From Bacillus chungangensis (GTDB lineage Bacteria; Bacillota; Bacilli; Bacillales; Bacillaceae_C): DNA of 40,000 nucleotides. The stretch covers positions 182,396 to 222,395 of the forward strand of contig NZ_JAUSTT010000001.1 in the NCBI RefSeq assembly GCF_030812995.1, given 5' to 3'. The notes below the pieces were generated by a model that ran no database searches, was not told the DNA's origin, and was given only the letters and a program-made list of their open reading frames with translations. The position numbers and the translations under genes were made by a program. Positions 10,492-18,429 of this stretch are shown piece after piece. Positions within the stretch are counted from its first letter, which is position 1. Each line of letters starts with the position of its first letter.

Positions 10492-11034
10492 CTAGAGAGA
10501 GACCAAAGCACTTACTGTTAATTCCCCGAGATATCGTCCTAAATTTGTATCATATCCAGGTGTGATTGGTGCTGTTACTGTTGCGTCTACTACAATTCGC
10601 GCACTATTGCCAACTAATACCCCAGCTGCAATTAAAGCTTCTCCTACAGCAATTTCAACGTTCTGAGGGTTTCCGTCATTTGAATCTGTAAATAATGGGA
10701 TACTTAGTACAACCACTCCGAGTATATTTATAATTTCTAGCGTAGCAGTTACTGTTGCAGTTTCATTTGCTGCAAATGCATATGTGGCACTAACTGGCAA
10801 CACTACACTAAGAATTGGAAGTCCTGGGACTGCAAAAGTACTTCGGAACGTAACCGTTTGCCCTGATGCATTATTTGGCGACCAAATATAATTGTTGTTC
10901 CCATCTATTGCAGGTGATGTTAATGCTGGTGGTTGAAAAACAGCGGGTGTAGGAAGCGTTCCTGGTGCCGCAGCAGTGTCAGCGATGACTAAAGTATTCG
11001 TTGGCGTTGTAAATTCTTGTAAAACTATAGGCAT
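10492..11034 (-). CDS. Hypothetical acidic Thr/Ala/Val/Pro-rich protein, possibly a beta-sandwich spore-surface type (DUF3992/BxpB-like by composition only)
   Basis: 180-aa ORF with a strong RBS (AGGAGG 8 nt before the ATG) and its own terminator. It has no Lys, Cys or His and no internal Met, and no signal peptide or TM helix. The style of the C-terminal half resembles exosporium/appendage proteins, recalled from memory rather than searched. Confidence 0.75.
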   Translation of the reverse strand: MPIVLQEFTTPTNTLVIADTAAAPGTLPTPAVFQPPALTSPAIDGNNNYIWSPNNASGQTVTFRSTFAVPGLPILSVVLPVSATYAFAANETATVTATLEIINILGVVVLSIPLFTDSNDGNPQNVEIAVGEALIAAGVLVGNSARIVVDATVTAPITPGYDTNLGRYLGELTVSALVSL

Positions 11035-11321
11035 AAAAATGACCTCCTAACACTAAATTATTTGTCAATGTTAGTTGACGATAATATATTATGGTTTTCA
11101 AGTACTTTTGATTGGACAAACAGTATGGGAAAAACGAATATTTTTGATAGATGAAGAAAATAGGAGGTTCTTTCAGATAAAGAAGTATTTTAAATTTAAA
11201 TTAACTGCTGTGTGTTGCACCCTTATCACACAGATGAGGAGGCTGCTGTTTGATTCATTATGTTTACTTGTGTTCTCTTATTAACGTCAAAGATTACTTC
11301 TTAAATCTTTTTAGGAAAAAC

Positions 11322-13540: not shown

Positions 13541-14020
13541 ATGAAACAGAAAGAATTATCAGCGTGGTTAAAAATGATCATTGTTATTTGTGGATTTTTT
13601 GGTCTGTTGTTGTGCATATATATTGGTCCTGAAATTGGAAGGGAAATGTTACTAGACTCAAAAAATTTGCAGGTGCTGTATACGCCCTTTGTTGCATTTA
13701 TTTGGATTACAGGAATTCCATTTTTCATTGCCTTAGCATTAGGGTGGCAGATATGTTCGGATATTGGCTCTGATCAGGCTTTTACCATTAAAAATGCAAG
13801 TAGATTGAAGATAATAAGTGTTTTATCAATAATTGAAGGTGTTTTATACATTGGGGCATTACTTTATATTTTCGTAGTCGGAAGTTATTATATGAACATT
13901 TTATTTGTTTTTTTACTGATACTATTTTTCTCAGTCGTTATTTCCGTATTTACTTCCATGCTTTCTCATTTAGTTAGAAAAGCTAGTGAAATAAAGCAGG
14001 ATAACGATTTAACGATATGA
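13541..14020 (+). CDS. Multi-pass membrane protein (YoaS/DUF2975-like, usual partner of YozG-type regulators)
   Basis: 159 aa with about 4 hydrophobic helices and RBS AAAGGGAG. Lies immediately upstream of a YozG-like HTH gene. Confidence 0.75.
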   Translation: MKQKELSAWLKMIIVICGFFGLLLCIYIGPEIGREMLLDSKNLQVLYTPFVAFIWITGIPFFIALALGWQICSDIGSDQAFTIKNASRLKIISVLSIIEGVLYIGALLYIFVVGSYYMNILFVFLLILFFSVVISVFTSMLSHLVRKASEIKQDNDLTI

Positions 14021-14028
14021 GGTGTTGA

Positions 14029-14238
14029 ATGATGACTATCATAGTAAATCTTGATGTTATGTTGGCTAAAAGAAAAATGAGTGTTACAGAATTATCTGAA
14101 AAAATAGGGATTACAATGGCAAATGTATCAATTTTAAAAAATGGAAAAGCAAAAGCGATTAAATTTTCTACTTTAGAAAAAATTTGCGAAGTTCTAGAAT
14201 GTCAACCAGGTGATATTCTAGAATATCAAAAAAATTAG
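14029..14238 (+). CDS. yozG: XRE/Cro-family HTH transcriptional regulator, YozG-like
   Basis: 69 aa. LDVMLAKRKMSVTELSEKIGITMANVSILKNGKAKAIKFSTLEKICEVLECQPGDILEY matches the YozG family pattern recalled from B. subtilis. Confidence 0.85.
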   Translation: MMTIIVNLDVMLAKRKMSVTELSEKIGITMANVSILKNGKAKAIKFSTLEKICEVLECQPGDILEYQKN

Positions 14239-14267
14239 ATTAGGGTTAATTAAATGAAGGAGAGTAT

Positions 14268-14489
14268 ATGATGAAAAATAAATATCGATTAGCTTCCACA
14301 CCAATATTTTTAGGGGTTTTATGTTTAGTTATCTATAGTATGATTGGTGCAAGATTGGAACCAGACGGTACTTTGGTTGAACCTTTCTTCTTGATTCCAT
14401 TAAGTTATCTTTTTGTTTTTAGTGGGATTATTACATTATTGTTTGTGGCTATTATTTCGGTGTTCAATAAAAGCAAACATAAAAATTAA
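14268..14489 (+). CDS. Small two-TM membrane protein
   Basis: 73 aa with two hydrophobic segments, RBS GAAGGAG. Third gene of the operon. Confidence 0.65.
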   Translation: MMKNKYRLASTPIFLGVLCLVIYSMIGARLEPDGTLVEPFFLIPLSYLFVFSGIITLLFVAIISVFNKSKHKN

Positions 14490-14867: not shown

Positions 14868-14934
14868 TCAGGATTAGTTGATGTAATACTTATGCTTATT
14901 TTTTTAGTAATGTTTGAAAGAATGGTGTTATAAG

Positions 14935-15007
14935 AAAAAACGCCCAAAACGTTGATAAATCAACATTTCAGACGTTTATTAAATCATTCTGTTTTGAGCG
15001 TTTTTTC
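14935..15007. terminator. Long bidirectional terminator-like hairpin flanking the tRNA remnant
   Basis: aacgcccaaaac (14939-14950) pairs with gttttgagcgtt (14991-15002) with one mismatch. There is an inner hairpin gttga-taaa-tcaac, an A-run upstream and a T-run downstream. Confidence 0.6.
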
Positions 15008-15015
15008 TTAAAATA

Positions 15016-15050
15016 CGTCCCAGGAGAGATTCGAACTCCCGACCGACCTG
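15016..15050 (-). pseudogene. tRNA 3'-end fragment (T-arm plus acceptor 3' strand), probable prophage attachment-site core
   Basis: Minus strand reads ...aggtcggtc GGGAG TTCGAAT CTCTC CTGGGAC G: T-stem, canonical T-loop and 7-nt acceptor strand. No matching 5' acceptor strand (GTCCCAG), D-arm or anticodon arm is seen upstream. Confidence 0.7.
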
Positions 15051-15264
15051 TAACGTGTTATGTGTTAACCGTTGATATAACGCTATTTGATACGCTCATT
15101 GATTCGGTCATTTACCGAACTTTCGACCGATTTCATTATAGCACGTCGTATTATAGAAGAAAAGCGTTAACGGTATTCGAATCTGTTTCCGTTATGTTAA
15201 ACTAAAAACCAAGGGTATTGTGAGGTTTAAGTAATTAAAATATCTTCGATGAGTAGGTGCTACT

Positions 15265-15594
15265 ATGGGTGTTAAGAAAGTTACTCTTGTTATTCGCAAT
15301 GGAGAAGCAATCGATATCCGAACATCTGATCTTATTAAATTTGAGATTTCCGTCTTAAAGGAAAATCATAAATTGATAAATGACGGGAAGATATTAATAG
15401 ATGAAATCGAAAGATTGTGCGATGAATTTCGGCTAGAAATGAAATATAATCCTAGCTTAGAACGAATGCTTCGAGATGACATCGAAAAAATTATCTTGCA
15501 CAGGCAAAAAGAAAAAACAATATATTGTATTGATTTCCGAGTACAACAACAAGCTGGTCATGACAATGTGCTGTGGGTGTCTGGGTGGCAATAA
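15265..15594 (+). CDS. Hypothetical prophage accessory protein (109 aa)
   Basis: ORF with AGGTG RBS and its own terminator at 15594-15620. No recognisable motifs. Confidence 0.6.
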   Translation: MGVKKVTLVIRNGEAIDIRTSDLIKFEISVLKENHKLINDGKILIDEIERLCDEFRLEMKYNPSLERMLRDDIEKIILHRQKEKTIYCIDFRVQQQAGHDNVLWVSGWQ

Positions 15595-15620
15595 CTCCTC
15601 TTTTTAGGGGAGTTTTTTGT
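15594..15620 (+). terminator. Rho-independent terminator
   Basis: actcctc-ttttta-ggggagt followed by TTTTTTG, starting at the stop codon of the 109-aa ORF. Confidence 0.7.
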
Positions 15621-15647
15621 TTGGGCAAAAATAATTTTAAAAAAGTC

Positions 15648-15682
15648 TTGCGTAGTATACTTAAGTTTAGTATACTTAAGTT
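15648..15682 (+). promoter_or_regulatory. Strong sigmaA-type promoter with a perfect 2 x 15-bp tandem repeat (operator candidate)
   Basis: TTGCGT (15648-15653), 17 nt spacer, TATACT (15671-15676). tagtatacttaagtt occurs at 15653-15667 and 15668-15682. Each unit contains the palindromes AGTATACT and CTTAAG. Confidence 0.75.
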
Positions 15683-15707
15683 AATCAAAACAAAGGGGGA
15701 AGTAACG

Positions 15708-16127
15708 ATGAAGAAAATCGTCATGACGAAGGCTTGGCAAATTGCCAGAAAAGGTTTTTCTAAATTTGGTGGAAAGATTAAAGATTATTTTGCAGAAGCT
15801 CTTCGCATGGCGTGGGCAATCGTGTTAAAGGGAATGGAAAGTAAGATTGGATTTTGTGAATTACCAAAAGGCATAAACGGTTCTTGCTACTTTGTTATAA
15901 ATGATGACAAAGGCATTCAAGTATCTCTTCTTTCAAAAGAAAAATCATGGAGAGGAAAAGAATATATCAAACGTAATCCAATTGAAAGATACAGAACTGG
16001 AAAGAATAAATTAACAGGCGCTCCAATCCGAATGTACCACTACGCTAAGAACTGTGGAGACATCGAAATTCGTCTTAATGATGAGGTTATTGTGATTGAA
16101 AACCACATCGATCCAAAATGGCTTTAA
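15708..16127 (+). CDS. Hypothetical prophage accessory protein (139 aa)
   Basis: The track ORF 15573..16127 runs through the terminator and promoter. The realistic start is ATG 15708 (MKKIVMTKAWQIARKGFSKFGGKIKDYFAEALRMAWAIV) with AAAGGGGGAAG RBS. This N-terminal helix motif recurs in small phage/plasmid proteins of unknown function (from memory). Confidence 0.7.
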   Translation: MKKIVMTKAWQIARKGFSKFGGKIKDYFAEALRMAWAIVLKGMESKIGFCELPKGINGSCYFVINDDKGIQVSLLSKEKSWRGKEYIKRNPIERYRTGKNKLTGAPIRMYHYAKNCGDIEIRLNDEVIVIENHIDPKWL

Positions 16128-16175
16128 TTATAGAGGGTTCTTCCCTCATACATATAAAAGGAGGAAATAAAAAAA

Positions 16176-16484
16176 ATGGCTGTAAAAGAATTATTTAAAG
16201 GGTTAGAAGATGCTCGCAAGGAATTTAACGGTTGGCAAGGGAATGCGGTTATTTTTATCGATTTTGAAGATATGTCAGCGTGGACACAAGTGTTTGATAT
16301 ACCGACCTATCACAGCGATTCGATCGTTACATTGATAAGCAAAGACGATCTTTACGGCAGAAATGACAGATACAATTATAGGGTTTTAGAAAAATTAGCT
16401 AAAGCTAAACACAAAGACTACAAAGAAGGCTTTGCACATTGGCAAATCGAAGATGATTATCGATACGCAGAAATATTCTACTAA
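16176..16484 (+). CDS. Hypothetical prophage accessory protein (102 aa, acidic)
   Basis: ORF with AAAGGAGG RBS, tightly spaced within the cassette. Confidence 0.65.
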   Translation: MAVKELFKGLEDARKEFNGWQGNAVIFIDFEDMSAWTQVFDIPTYHSDSIVTLISKDDLYGRNDRYNYRVLEKLAKAKHKDYKEGFAHWQIEDDYRYAEIFY

Positions 16485-16498
16485 GAAGGTGTTAAAAA

Positions 16499-17023
16499 AT
16501 GCAAGAAGCAAAACGAGCTATAGAATTTCTACTTTTTGAGTCAAATGTATCTAACTATAAAATATCCCAAGAGACGGGCATTAGCCAGCCTGTCCTTGCA
16601 AAATACTCGAAAGGTGTATCGGATATTGAAAATATGACGTTTGGCAATGCTATAAAACTGTACGATTGTTATTTGAAACTCAAGGGGGAAAAGGTGTTGG
16701 GTAATAAAGATAGAGACATGCTATTTGGAAAGTTATTTGCCACAGCAGATGTGTTTGGTAGTGGTGTTTTTGAAAAAGATAAATACTCTGTACAAAATAA
16801 ATACATGGAAAAATTTCAGAAAAAGCCGATGTCTACTTTTGTTAAAATCCATGAAGATTTGATGAATTACACGCACAAATTTGGGAGAAAAGAAGATATA
16901 TTGATGAAACAATTTGATGAAATAGTAGACGAGATAGGATTGGAATCTTATGACGACAGACCATTGGGAGATAAGTGGCTACTTGGTTTTTACAAGCAAA
17001 GGCATGATCTAGAGAATATTTAA
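16499..17023 (+). CDS. HTH (AcrIIA1-NTD/Aca-like) fused to a helical C-terminal domain resembling Cas8c C-terminus/Cas11c
   Basis: 174 aa, RBS GAAGGTG. The N-terminus NYKISQETGISQPVLAKYSKG is a clear HTH. The C-terminal motifs LFGKLFATADVF, KKPMSTFVKIHEDLMNYTHKF and WLLGFYKQRHDL parallel my recollection of the Csd1/Cas8c C-terminal consensus (..GRLFAvLE.., ..sAsatPa.vFp.Ll....hHl.KL.., ..FaLGYYHQR..). Not verified by search. Confidence 0.6.
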   Translation: MQEAKRAIEFLLFESNVSNYKISQETGISQPVLAKYSKGVSDIENMTFGNAIKLYDCYLKLKGEKVLGNKDRDMLFGKLFATADVFGSGVFEKDKYSVQNKYMEKFQKKPMSTFVKIHEDLMNYTHKFGRKEDILMKQFDEIVDEIGLESYDDRPLGDKWLLGFYKQRHDLENI

Positions 17024-17097
17024 ATTTAAGCATCTCCTCTCTGTGGGAAGGGCTATTTTTTAATTGACAAAAAATTTGAAAAAGGTAAAATTAAAGT

Positions 17098-17180
17098 AGT
17101 GTTGGGTTTTAGTGTACCTAATCGAGACCCTTGGATGGTCATATTGGGTAAATAAGGCATCCAAGGGTTGTTTTATTTAT
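17098..17180 (+). ncRNA. Candidate ~80-nt small RNA (orphan promoter plus terminator), convergent with the endolysin 3' end
   Basis: Promoter TTGACA (17064-17069), 16 nt spacer, TAAAAT (17086-17091). A 10-bp hairpin cccttggatg/catccaaggg (17128-17167) is followed by TTGTTTTATTTATTTT. No ORF or RBS in between. Confidence 0.4.
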
Positions 17181-17181
17181 T

Positions 17182-18429
17182 TTACTTCTTATAAATTAGT
17201 GGCAGCAAATTGTTTCTCAATCTATTCACAACAACAGCCATTTCCTCACGAGTGATGTTGTCTTGTGGACGTGTGCCGTCAAAATATCCATTAGCGACAG
17301 CTTCGTCCCAATCTTTCTTCGCCCATGCAGATGGTTTATTTTTATCCACTGAAGATTCCTCCTTTGGCACTGTAGGGGCTACGACGCCACTCTTCTTTTT
17401 TAGTCCAAACTGTTTCGCCAAACCGGAAACAATCGCTTGGGCACACTTGCGCCGATAACTGTCCGACTTCAATAACGCTAATTCTGCCGGATTATCCATA
17501 AAGCCACATTCGACTAGAATTGCGTCCATTTTCGTCTCGCGGAGCACGTGGAAATTGGCCACCTTTACGCCTCGATCACGAAGTCCGGTCGAAGCTATTA
17601 GCGCAGCCTGCACCTTCGTCGCGAGGGCGACAGCGCCCGCTGGCTTAGACGTATATACATAAGTCTCGATGCCGTTCGCATTGCTCCACGCAGAGCCTAC
17701 CGCATTAGCGTGAATAGATACGAAGGCATCGGCGCCCCATCGGTTTGCTTTGTCCGTTCGTTCTTTTAGTGGGATATCGCGAATGCCTGAAGGGTCATGT
17801 GTAATTTCGACGAGCACGCCTTGATATGTCCGAAGTTCTTCGACTACATATTTTGCCACAACGCTATTAAAATGAAACTCTCGCATACTATCGTCTGGCG
17901 CACGTTTTCCCGGAGTATTATTACCGTGTCCTGCATCGATTGCTATACGCAAATCTAAATCGACTCCTTTCGTATTAACATCATATTTCGTTAGATTATT
18001 CGTTTCTATTACGCCTATCAACTTTTCGGCGTACTTAGGATCAGTCGCATAGCCAGCGTTTTTAACTGCCCACGCTGCCTTTCGATAATCCTTTTCGCCA
18101 ACAACCGCCCTGTACAAGTCCTTATTCCATGACACACCGTTTACGTATTTGTCGGTCAGGTCACGAATTGATTCAAGCCATGACGGGTACTTACGGAAGG
18201 CGGCGTTTACCTTGATTTCTTTTCCGTTCACGAATTCCGAAGTAATAATCATAACGGATTGCCCTTTGTATTCGCCTTTTATACCAAATAGATTCTTTCC
18301 TTTTTGCGCTAATTCCGATGTCCCCCAAGCCGACTCAAGTACGGCCTGTGCGAGTATTAGTGACGCTAGGACATCCGACTCCGCCGCTGCTTTCCGTGCG
18401 TGAGGGGCGATCTCTTCGATGAAACTCAT
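17182..18429 (-). CDS. Three-domain endolysin: N-acetylglucosaminidase (GH73-like), N-acetylmuramoyl-L-alanine amidase (Amidase_3-like) and a C-terminal SLH-like wall-binding motif
   Basis: 415 aa. N-terminus LILAQAVLESAWGTSELAQKGKNLFGIKG (glucosaminidase). Middle IAIDAGHG...FVSIHANA...ILVECGFMDN (amidase_3). C-terminus AVANGYFDGTRPQDNITREEMAVVVNRL (SLH-like). Confidence 0.88.
   Translation of the reverse strand: MSFIEEIAPHARKAAAESDVLASLILAQAVLESAWGTSELAQKGKNLFGIKGEYKGQSVMIITSEFVNGKEIKVNAAFRKYPSWLESIRDLTDKYVNGVSWNKDLYRAVVGEKDYRKAAWAVKNAGYATDPKYAEKLIGVIETNNLTKYDVNTKGVDLDLRIAIDAGHGNNTPGKRAPDDSMREFHFNSVVAKYVVEELRTYQGVLVEITHDPSGIRDIPLKERTDKANRWGADAFVSIHANAVGSAWSNANGIETYVYTSKPAGAVALATKVQAALIASTGLRDRGVKVANFHVLRETKMDAILVECGFMDNPAELALLKSDSYRRKCAQAIVSGLAKQFGLKKKSGVVAPTVPKEESSVDKNKPSAWAKKDWDEAVANGYFDGTRPQDNITREEMAVVVNRLRNNLLPLIYKK

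Follow-up and report, generated by a model that had tools for sequence, protein, structure and literature searches.

A three-gene operon, made up of open reading frames (ORFs) 2 to 4, lies at one end of a myovirus-type temperate prophage of Bacillus chungangensis, within a 40,000-nucleotide (nt) stretch of contig NZ_JAUSTT010000001.1 that is referred to here as the window. We assign a probability of roughly 60% to the reading that ORF2 to ORF4 are a self-repressing anti-CRISPR (acr) locus in which ORF4 is bifunctional, serving both as the anti-CRISPR-associated (Aca) repressor and as an anti-CRISPR (Acr), and in which, by analogy with the Listeria protein AcrIB4, it would inhibit type I-C CRISPR systems through subunit mimicry. 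Very probably, the locus is an anti-defense island. ORF4 is the strongest anti-CRISPR candidate of the cassette, with type I-C as its predicted target, because its C-terminal half is a homolog of Cas11c.

ORF4 is composed of an N-terminal helix-turn-helix (HTH) domain and a C-terminal Cas11c-like domain. Across several profile libraries, the C-terminal domain matches the extreme C terminus of Cas8c/Csd1 and no other family: residues 69 to 171 align with positions 450 to 558 of the 559 in Pfam Cas_Csd1 (E = 2.7e-13) and are also matched by NCBIfam TIGR01863 and by four PADLOC Cas8c models (E values down to 4.7e-18). In type I-C systems, Cas11c is the polypeptide that corresponds to the C-terminal domain of Cas8c and is made from an internal start (O'Brien et al.). 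A profile of the C-terminal domain of the ORF4 family aligns end to end with D. vulgaris Cas11c (PDB 7kha_K, residues 8 to 118 of 124; E = 1e-5). In a Foldseek search with the AlphaFold 2 (AF2) model of ORF4 (predicted local distance difference test score [pLDDT], 82), the top PDB match was likewise a Cas11c (8dex_J), with a template modeling (TM) score of 0.75. From end to end, the helical bundle is a homolog of the C-terminal domain of Cas8c, which is to say of a complete Cas11c. The closest bona fide Cas8c found (P0062) is encoded in a canonical cas3-cas5c-cas8c-cas7-cas4-cas1-cas2 operon (L035), and it is 38% identical to ORF4 over its own last 106 amino acids (aa).

The NCBI Prokaryotic Genome Annotation Pipeline (PGAP) names the ORF4 product “type I-C CRISPR-associated protein Cas8c/Csd1.” This name is misleading, because the N-terminal ~450 residues of Cas8c are missing and there is no cas operon. 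A genuine Cas8c/Csd1 is a large subunit of ~600 aa with an N-terminal domain for recognition of the protospacer-adjacent motif, and it is encoded in a cas3-cas5c-cas8c-cas7 operon, as in L021 and L035; ORF4 covers only the last segment of the Cas8c model. Neither a CRISPR array nor any other cas gene was found near ORF4 in the window or in the related loci described below.

The C-terminal domain of ORF4 belongs to a group of proteins set apart from genuine Cas8c. An exhaustive profile search with the C-terminal domain of the ORF4 family gave 828 matches, which were scored domain by domain and placed in neighbor-joining trees; a word-indexed search with the ORF4 domain alone found no genuine Cas8c. 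In the trees, ~44 representative clusters of short orphan Cas11c-like proteins split from the C-terminal domains of all Cas8c proteins, and this split was exact in 75 to 76 of 100 bootstrap replicates and had no more than two misplaced leaves in 97 to 99. The orphan domain keeps the core motifs DRDxLFGRL and LLGYYxQ and a conserved P. In Cas8c, the C-terminal residues F605, K607, and K608, along with their Cas11c equivalents, touch the non-target strand, and K607 and K608 are the sole highly conserved basic residues across I-C systems (O'Brien et al.). ORF4, which ends in QRHDLENI, lacks these contacts: where its C terminus (...LLGFYKQRHDLENI) is aligned to ...GYYHQRKALFTKK, E, N, and I replace F, T, and K and are followed by the stop. 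A C-terminal aromatic residue is kept in 2 of 44 orphans and in 25 of 44 canonical Cas8c proteins (Fisher p = 8e-8), the dibasic motif is kept in 5 and 27 of 44, respectively (p = 2e-6), and the mean net charge of the domain is −2.4 in orphans versus +3.3 in canonical Cas8c (Mann-Whitney p = 3e-13), by tests that ignore phylogeny and with a Cas8c set that consists of the top matches to a profile built from the ORF4 family itself. To judge from its sequence, an orphan domain that has shed both the strand-holding residues and the positive charge would be a degenerate small subunit.

At the boundary between the HTH and Cas11c-like domains of ORF4 (16685 to 16699), a Shine-Dalgarno (SD)-like sequence, AAGGGGGAAAAG, which resembles the ribosome-binding site (RBS) of ORF2, is followed by GTG/TTG. 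This arrangement is found in four of seven loci, with good versions in L004, L005, and L008 and poor ones in L001, L002, and L007. Internal initiation there could release a free Cas11c-like protein, as genuine Cas11c is released from cas8c. Such a product, together with retention of the entire Cas11c fold, would suit a small subunit that still works and that adds to or re-tunes a type I-C Cascade for the benefit of the phage, for example, in support of a host or phage CRISPR system against competing elements rather than as its inhibitor. However, this explanation is scarcely credible given the lack of arrays and other cas genes in the window and in every related locus, the loss of the non-target-strand contacts and of the positive charge, and the separation of the orphan clade from genuine Cas8c C-terminal domains. 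Furthermore, in Listeria, diverged viral copies were inhibitory, whereas genuine Cas subunits were not.

The N-terminal domain of ORF4 is an HTH of the Aca11/AcrIIA15 type. Among PDB sequences, residues 1 to 60 matched the N-terminal domain of AcrIIA15 (8jfr; E = 2.4e-4) and Aca11 (9lx2; E = 0.015), and in the AF2 model, the fold superimposes on both of these domains, as bound to palindromic DNA, with a root mean square deviation of 0.9 Å at 31 to 33% identity. An HTH in the last gene of the cassette, and with it an aca, had been proposed in the initial annotation. The HTH is present and is homologous to known Aca proteins, but ORF4 is more than an Aca, as its C-terminal half is a homolog of Cas11c and the Cas8c C-terminal domain. 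The ratio of nonsynonymous to synonymous substitution rates (dN/dS) is ~0.1 for each domain, and no other part of the protein is as conserved as the N-terminal domain. Domains of this N-terminal type also occur with unrelated C-terminal domains (P0008 to P0010) and alone (P0174, in a region resembling an integrative and conjugative element, with RadC and ArdC).

As first described, three of the ORFs are tightly spaced behind a promoter; ORF2 to ORF4 form one operon (15648 to 17023), with intergenic gaps of 48 and 14 nt. The promoter had also been called near consensus, which holds for the −10 box (TATACT, 15671 to 15676; five of six consensus positions) and the 17-nt spacer but not for the −35 box (TTGCGT, 15648 to 15653; three of six), and a consensus promoter scanner did not list it. 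A perfect tandem 15-nt repeat, TAGTATACTTAAGTT, is present in two copies (15653 to 15667 and 15668 to 15682). Each copy contains the 8-bp palindrome ACTTAAGT (15659 to 15666 and 15674 to 15681), and the palindromes overlap the −35/−10 spacer and the −10 box. Exact copies of TATACTTAAGTT are found in the window only at these two places. Seven related loci (L001, L002, L003, L004, L005, L007, and L008) share this promoter/operator region, which consists of TTGACT, 17 nt that include TATACTTAAGTT, TATACT, and then TAAGTTAATCA; upstream of that region, each locus has unrelated DNA. The two tandem palindromes that overlap the promoter are kept in all eight loci and are candidate operators. AcrIIA1, AcrIIA15, and Aca proteins repress their own promoters, and the ORF4 HTH quite likely represses its operon in the same manner.

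Downstream of this shared region, the gene content varies. The operon of L004, beside a lysin gene, consists of a Gp111 gene, an ORF3 homolog, and an ORF4 homolog. In L002 and L003, a Gp111 gene and an ORF4 homolog enclose an unrelated gene of 80 or 70 aa. L005, on a phage-plasmid and before the lysin gene, has genes for a 237-aa Gp111 protein, an ORF4 homolog, and a 75-aa protein, and L007, between lysin and integrase genes, has genes for a 200-aa Gp111 protein and an ORF4 homolog. In L001 (a Lederbergia sp. prophage; L006 is the same place), a 77-aa gene precedes the ORF4 homolog, near genes for a GH25 lysin and a holin. The operon of L008 consists of an ORF3 homolog, a gene for a 314-aa protein above the Pfam threshold for Cas_VVA1548, and an ORF4 homolog. 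A comparison of related prophages for turnover of cassette genes had been proposed in the initial annotation, and turnover is what is seen: the promoter/operator and the HTH gene are kept in the seven other loci, and the genes upstream of the latter are exchanged, with one set in the window and L004 and others in L002 and L003, L005, L007, L001, and L008. Shuffled cargo next to a regulator and an operator that are both conserved is what characterizes acr-aca loci.

Two of these loci carry further genes of note. The 314-aa protein of L008 (5910 to 6854) scored 27.6 bits against Pfam Cas_VVA1548 (cutoff, 25), a putative CRISPR-associated family, and because its gene sits between the ORF3 homolog and the HTH-Cas11c gene, it is a second orphan cas-like domain in such loci. 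In L004, a gene (583 to 1521) in the same island encodes a 312-aa Lactamase_B protein that weakly matches Anti-Pycsar_Apyc1, and the part of the island upstream of the conserved operon also has DUF3006 and HTH_17 genes.

ORF2 starts at an ATG after AAAGGGGGAAG, a good RBS, although the longest ORF begins at an upstream GTG. Its product joins a conserved N-terminal module of ~45 aa (Phage_Gp111) to a variable C-terminal domain, and a member of the same family is encoded by the first gene in L002, L003, L004, L005, L007, and L022 to L025. In Streptococcus thermophilus phage D4276, a Gp111-family gene (D4276_027; L011, 3516 to 3836) lies just past the lysin gene and immediately upstream of the gene for AcrIIA5, a validated anti-CRISPR. 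As a family, Phage_Gp111 proteins combine a conserved N-terminal ~40 aa (VMTKAWxIAxxGxKKFGGKxKEYFAxALxMAW; 15708 to 15850 in ORF2) with unrelated C-terminal domains of 60 to 190 aa, and their genes open lysin-adjacent islands of Bacillus-group and streptococcal phages, the AcrIIA5 locus included.

ORF3 had no match in Pfam, NCBIfam, or PADLOC, no significant match in PHROGs, and none in a tblastn search against phages, and its AF2 model was unusable (pLDDT, 44). Its homologs are found directly upstream of Cas11c-like genes in L004, L028 (46% identity), and L029 (38% identity), two genes upstream of the Cas11c-like gene in the same operon in L008, and in the IMG/VR contig L013. In L029, the gene next to the ORF3-family gene is a homolog of adc37 (36% identity; E = 1e-29), a marker of Listeria acr loci that neighbors acrIB3 to acrIB8 and acrVIA2 (Katz et al.). 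ORF2 and ORF3 are recurrent partner genes and further anti-defense candidates.

Members of the orphan clade differ in what is joined to the Cas11c-like domain. It may stand free (P0025, P0034, and P0039), follow an Aca-type HTH, precede an HTH_17 or HTH_59 domain (P0028, P0032, P0040, P0041, and P0063), or, judged by eye from the sequence, follow an AbrB-like segment (P0047). The Cas11c-HTH_17 form is encoded by nine IMG/VR contigs and two metagenome contigs. In L009 and six of the nine IMG/VR loci, a convergent amidase endolysin gene lies no more than ~3 kb away, and directly upstream of the Cas11c-HTH_17 gene are Gp111-family genes (L022 to L024) or a 5′-truncated ORF with the same C-terminal domain (L025). 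In P0099 (237 aa), the segment after the Cas11c-like domain weakly resembles Pfam AcrIC5, a type I-C anti-CRISPR (22.2 bits against a cutoff of 27; E = 1.5e-4).

These fusions bear on the possibility that ORF4 is an Aca-type regulator only. Its Cas11c-derived domain would then have been exapted for oligomerization or for sensing (for example, of Cascade or DNA, tuning repression), and the inhibitors would be ORF2 and/or ORF3, possibly acting on defenses other than CRISPR. The strong conservation of the N-terminal domain and its occurrence with unrelated C-terminal domains or alone are consistent with this, as are the recurrence of the ORF2 and ORF3 families beside Cas11c-like genes, the position of a Gp111 gene next to AcrIIA5, and the small size and acidity of ORF3, which it shares with many Acrs. 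However, free-standing members of the clade, such as the three named above, have no DNA-binding domain, which indicates that the Cas11c-like domain does something by itself. DNA-binding domains of at least three kinds have been fused to it independently, a pattern of Acr-Aca fusions and not of a dedicated oligomerization domain, and the only other gene in the operon of L001 encodes a 77-aa protein. A purely regulatory ORF4 is, in our judgment, rather unlikely.

The initial annotation had itself raised the alternative of a lysogeny-expressed moron or superinfection-exclusion cassette. Such a cassette would be unrelated to CRISPR, and the similarity to Cas8c would be an evolutionary relic with another present role. 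Morons are typically found where this cassette is, at the end of a prophage, on the opposite strand and with a promoter of their own, ORF1 to ORF3 have no assignable function, and a gene for SocA_Panacea, an antitoxin-like domain, adjoins the L002 and L003 loci. Nevertheless, the HTH is specifically of the Aca11/AcrIIA15 type, related loci have ties to AcrIIA5, to adc37, and to an Apyc1-like gene, and the Cas11c-like domain is under purifying selection with Cas8c models as its only matches, all of which make this alternative very unlikely. The layout of an acr-aca operon, as first proposed for the cassette, is supported by the type of the HTH, the tandem palindromes, the exchange of cargo, the adjacency to the endolysin gene, and the links to AcrIIA5 and adc37.

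ORF4 can be compared with AcrIB4, a Listeria anti-CRISPR that prevents DNA binding but does not abolish assembly; genuine Cas8b did not inhibit (Katz et al. 2024, bioRxiv 10.1101/2023.06.24.545427). AcrIB4 was later proposed to replace Cas11 and was called “the first example” of such a mechanism. Both proteins are mobile-element orphans whose homology to a type I large subunit is confined to its C-terminal portion, the equivalent of Cas11, with 38% identity to the cognate Cas8 C-terminal domain in the case of AcrIB4 and 38% to P0062 in the case of ORF4. Both belong to families that form their own clades apart from genuine Cas proteins, AcrIB4 is encoded in an acr locus and ORF4 in a candidate one, each beside lysis genes, and both are proposed poison small subunits. 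However, there is no detectable sequence homology between the two (hhalign probability, 0.1%), and ORF4 is not a member of the AcrIB4 family. ORF4 is derived from type I-C Cas8c rather than type I-B Cas8b, its ~107-aa domain covers the whole of Cas11c and is fused to an Aca-type HTH, and it is a candidate known from sequence. As ORF4 is not homologous to AcrIB4, it would represent an independent co-option from type I-C.

With AcrIIA15, AcrIIA1, and Aca11, ORF4 shares the N-terminal HTH fold, the place of its gene at the end of the operon, and palindromes in its own promoter, which in ORF4 are candidate operators, and, as in AcrIIA15 and AcrIIA1, the N-terminal domain is conserved and the C-terminal domains are swapped. 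The C-terminal domain of ORF4 is unrelated to the Cas9-binding ones of AcrIIA1 and AcrIIA15, however, and ORF4 is predicted to act on type I-C Cascade instead of Cas9; the candidate operators also differ in sequence. The likeness to Cas11c (D. vulgaris; PDB 7KHA and 8DEX) lies in the helical bundle, the end-to-end alignment, and the DRxxLFGRL and LLGYYxQ motifs, whereas ORF4 stands outside a cas operon, has no equivalents of F605, K607, and K608, has a negative net charge and an HTH fusion, and falls in a separate clade. The rows covered from Table S3 of Katz et al. list orphan cas8c-like fragments, some of ~300 bp, in IMG/VR viral contigs without arrays or cas operons. As far as those rows go, the matches are catalogued only, being neither tested nor analyzed by domain, no Aca fusion is mentioned, and the hosts are mostly Clostridia or unknown, with no Bacillaceae. 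As an orphan viral cas homolog in an anti-defense neighborhood and in a clade of its own, ORF4 fits the viral cas-derived Acr class of Katz et al.; it joins these proteins and the Acr-Aca fusions and is not a new category.

Under the reading of ORF4 as a combined Aca and Acr, the HTH, probably as a dimer, would bind both ACTTAAGT palindromes and shut the operon down after an initial burst, as suggested by homology to Aca11 and AcrIIA15 and by conservation of the operators. The sequence and the structural model show that the C-terminal domain is a diverged copy of Cas11c that has kept the helical-bundle core and lost the strand-holding residues and the positive charge. By analogy with AcrIB4, this domain may replace genuine Cas11c in the belly of type I-C Cascade, or it may bind the Cas8c C-terminal domain or Cas7; it would compete with Cas11c either along the Cas7 backbone or against the C-terminal domain of Cas8c. 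A Cascade poisoned in this way could not complete or lock the R-loop, and Cas3 would not be licensed. Steric hindrance or cross-linking by the attached dimeric HTH may contribute as well.

An extension of this mechanism, which we regard as quite doubtful, is that the HTH-Cas11c fusion acts as a self-titrating device. Capture by Cascade would draw the repressor off its operator, so that the anti-CRISPR output, ORF2 and ORF3 included, would rise in proportion to the Cascade content of the cell. In a stronger version, the dimeric HTH may tether poisoned Cascades to phage DNA or to one another. If self-titration does occur, the repeated, independent fusion of the domain to an N-terminal HTH, to a C-terminal HTH_17 or HTH_59 domain, and to an AbrB-like segment would reflect selection for coupling rather than gene economy.

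Several points weigh against ORF4 as a type I-C inhibitor. The protein is rare, with only seven full-length homologs (57 to 94% identity) in 5.8 billion protein clusters; a scan of GTDB representative genomes for the ORF4 family gave one match, in Lederbergia, and a scan of IMG/VR viral contigs gave none. The −35 box in the window is weak, in contrast to the TTGACT of the relatives, and the limits stated with the motif and charge statistics also count here. We infer the inhibition, the binding to Cascade, and the binding to the operators from sequence and analogy, and the mechanism of AcrIB4 is itself a proposal. No type I-C system lies within the window. Among Bacillaceae, B. halodurans is one carrier of type I-C systems; our literature search found nothing on CRISPR in B. 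chungangensis.

The coordinates of the features of the locus are collected in Table 1.

Table 1. Features between the prophage junction and the endolysin gene, with their positions in the window
Feature	Coordinates	Strand	Basis
3′ 33 nt of tRNA-Arg(TCT), displaced attachment site core	15015-15047	−	Identity to L014
ORF1, 109 aa, isoelectric point (pI) 6.3, unassigned family, variable cargo	15265-15594	+	ORF list, library scans
Intrinsic terminator ending the ORF1 unit	15593-15614	+	Nine-pair stem, then T-run; −14.9 kcal/mol, z-score −4.97
Promoter and candidate operators of ORF2 to ORF4	15648-15682	+	Sequence, tandem repeat, conservation
ORF2, 139 aa, pI 9.7	15708-16127	+	Pfam Phage_Gp111, E = 1.8e-14
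ORF3, 102 aa, acidic, pI 5.1, motif KDDLYGRNDRY	16176-16484	+	Uncharacterized family
ORF4, 174 aa	16499-17023	+	ORF list
ORF4 N-terminal domain (aa 1-64), HTH of Aca11/AcrIIA15 N-terminal type	16499-16690	+	Sequence and fold
ORF4 C-terminal domain (aa 68-174), complete Cas11c-like, equivalent to the Cas8c C-terminal domain	16700-17023	+	Profiles and fold
Promoter-like site, then strong hairpin and T-run	17064-17170 (site 17064-17091; hairpin 17126-17170)	+	Fold z-score −3.55
Endolysin (Glucosaminidase and Amidase_3), convergent with the cassette	17182-18429	−	Domain matches

All four plus-strand ORFs of the initial annotation (109, 139, 102, and 174 aa) are present. Their exact products, along with that of the flanking mntH, are deposited for B. 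chungangensis, and in comparison with L004, the closest relative locus, dN/dS is 0.05 for ORF2, 0.29 for ORF3, and 0.13 for ORF4; ORF1 to ORF4 are real genes, and the ORFs evolve as proteins. The cassette also has the position ascribed to it, between the prophage junction and the convergent endolysin gene, and it adjoins the latter as do the acr loci of Listeria. Positions 14927 to 15047 are 100% identical to positions 10996 to 11116 of L014, a related genome, and overlap its tRNA-Arg gene (11084 to 11159, minus strand). Homology to L014 ends at 15047/15048, the prophage junction, and the cassette is therefore located between the attachment site (att) and the lysis genes. Because the identity covers the 3′ end of tRNA-Arg and no intact tRNA occurs in the 40-kb window, the tRNA fragment in Table 1 is a displaced att copy; a DNA search against phage genomes returned a 34-nt tRNA fragment as its sole match. 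Beyond the endolysin gene, the minus strand encodes a holin-like ORF and tail, sheath, tape-measure, SU10-type capsid, portal, and terminase proteins, and the cassette, on the opposite strand of the att-endolysin interval, lies outside the core structural and replication modules.

The conserved cassette comprises three genes rather than the four originally described, because ORF1 has its own strong terminator and is missing from L004; ORF2 to ORF4 are the conserved unit, and ORF1 lies outside the operon. The terminator is kept in L004, where homology to the window starts again at 15572. At 90% identity, the cluster that contains ORF1 consists of this single B. chungangensis protein, and the searches that were run found no relatives outside this species, with no match in Pfam, NCBIfam, or PADLOC, no significant match in PHROGs, and no phage match in tblastn. 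ORF1 counts as unrelated, variable cargo. Similar short sequences flank it, with GCTACTATGGGTGT at its start (15259 to 15275) and GCTGTGGGTGT near its end (15570 to 15583), and L004, which has no ORF1, has one hybrid copy of them. This suggests that ORF1 was gained or lost via recombination between the flanking repeats.

Just past ORF4, a promoter-like sequence (TTGACA-16-TAAAAT) agrees with the sigma-70 consensus at 11 of 12 positions, and a stable hairpin is found ~35 nt further on. L004 has the same promoter hexamers and the same hairpin stem, with a different inner loop. The element may be a bidirectional terminator shared by ORF4 and the endolysin gene, or else a small RNA of ~85 nt. A solitary-repeat RNA anti-CRISPR was considered at this site and rejected, as no Rfam family matched 17064 to 17170 and, by eye, the sequence is unlike type I-C repeats. 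The endolysin is deposited for the same species at 415, 311, and 256 aa, which points to inconsistent start calls in public annotations. On the host side, a trio of genes (DUF2975, HTH_26, and DUF3955; 13541 to 14489) between mntH and the tRNA-Arg fragment is missing in L014, and because L014 has other genes between mntH and tRNA-Arg, this segment is itself a variable islet.

The search for the origin of the ORF4 domain also turned up Cas8c proteins with repeated C-terminal domains. About 35 representative clusters of Cas8c, mostly of 850 to 950 aa, have two or three (mostly three) tandem C-terminal Cas11c-like domains in place of a single one; examples are P0027, P0030, P0031, P0033, P0042 to P0045, and P0180 (WP_270638413.1 of Limosilactobacillus mucosae; L021, 3703 to 6363). 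The L. mucosae gene sits in a complete cas3-cas5c-cas8c-cas7-cas4-cas1-cas2 operon. Such proteins could hold the whole minor filament, that is, the C-terminal domain of Cas8c plus two Cas11c subunits, in one chain, and we found them mentioned nowhere in the 2025 CRISPR classification paper's text. Variants of ~870 aa with three tandem Cas11-like domains were considered as the source of the ORF4 domain on account of their high total scores, and they were rejected because each repeat scored 15 to 51 bits, compared with 60 to 86 bits for the C-terminal domains of canonical Cas8c.

Type I-C systems rank among the commonest and most compact of CRISPR systems and serve in large-deletion genome editing. 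To our knowledge, only AcrIB4, directed at type I-B, has so far been proposed to act by replacing Cas11. If ORF4 inhibits type I-C Cascade as proposed, it would be an independent type I-C counterpart, in which the loss of function has left a clear mark and the Aca is built in, and small-subunit co-option would be a general anti-CRISPR route. It would also be structurally tractable, as several I-C Cascade structures exist, and a candidate off-switch for I-C editors. A search rule would follow, namely to look outside cas operons for short matches to the Cas8c C-terminal domain that are now misannotated as “Cas8c/Csd1.” Likewise, the Phage_Gp111 N-terminal module and the ORF3 family would become new anchors with which to find anti-defense islands in phages of Bacillota.

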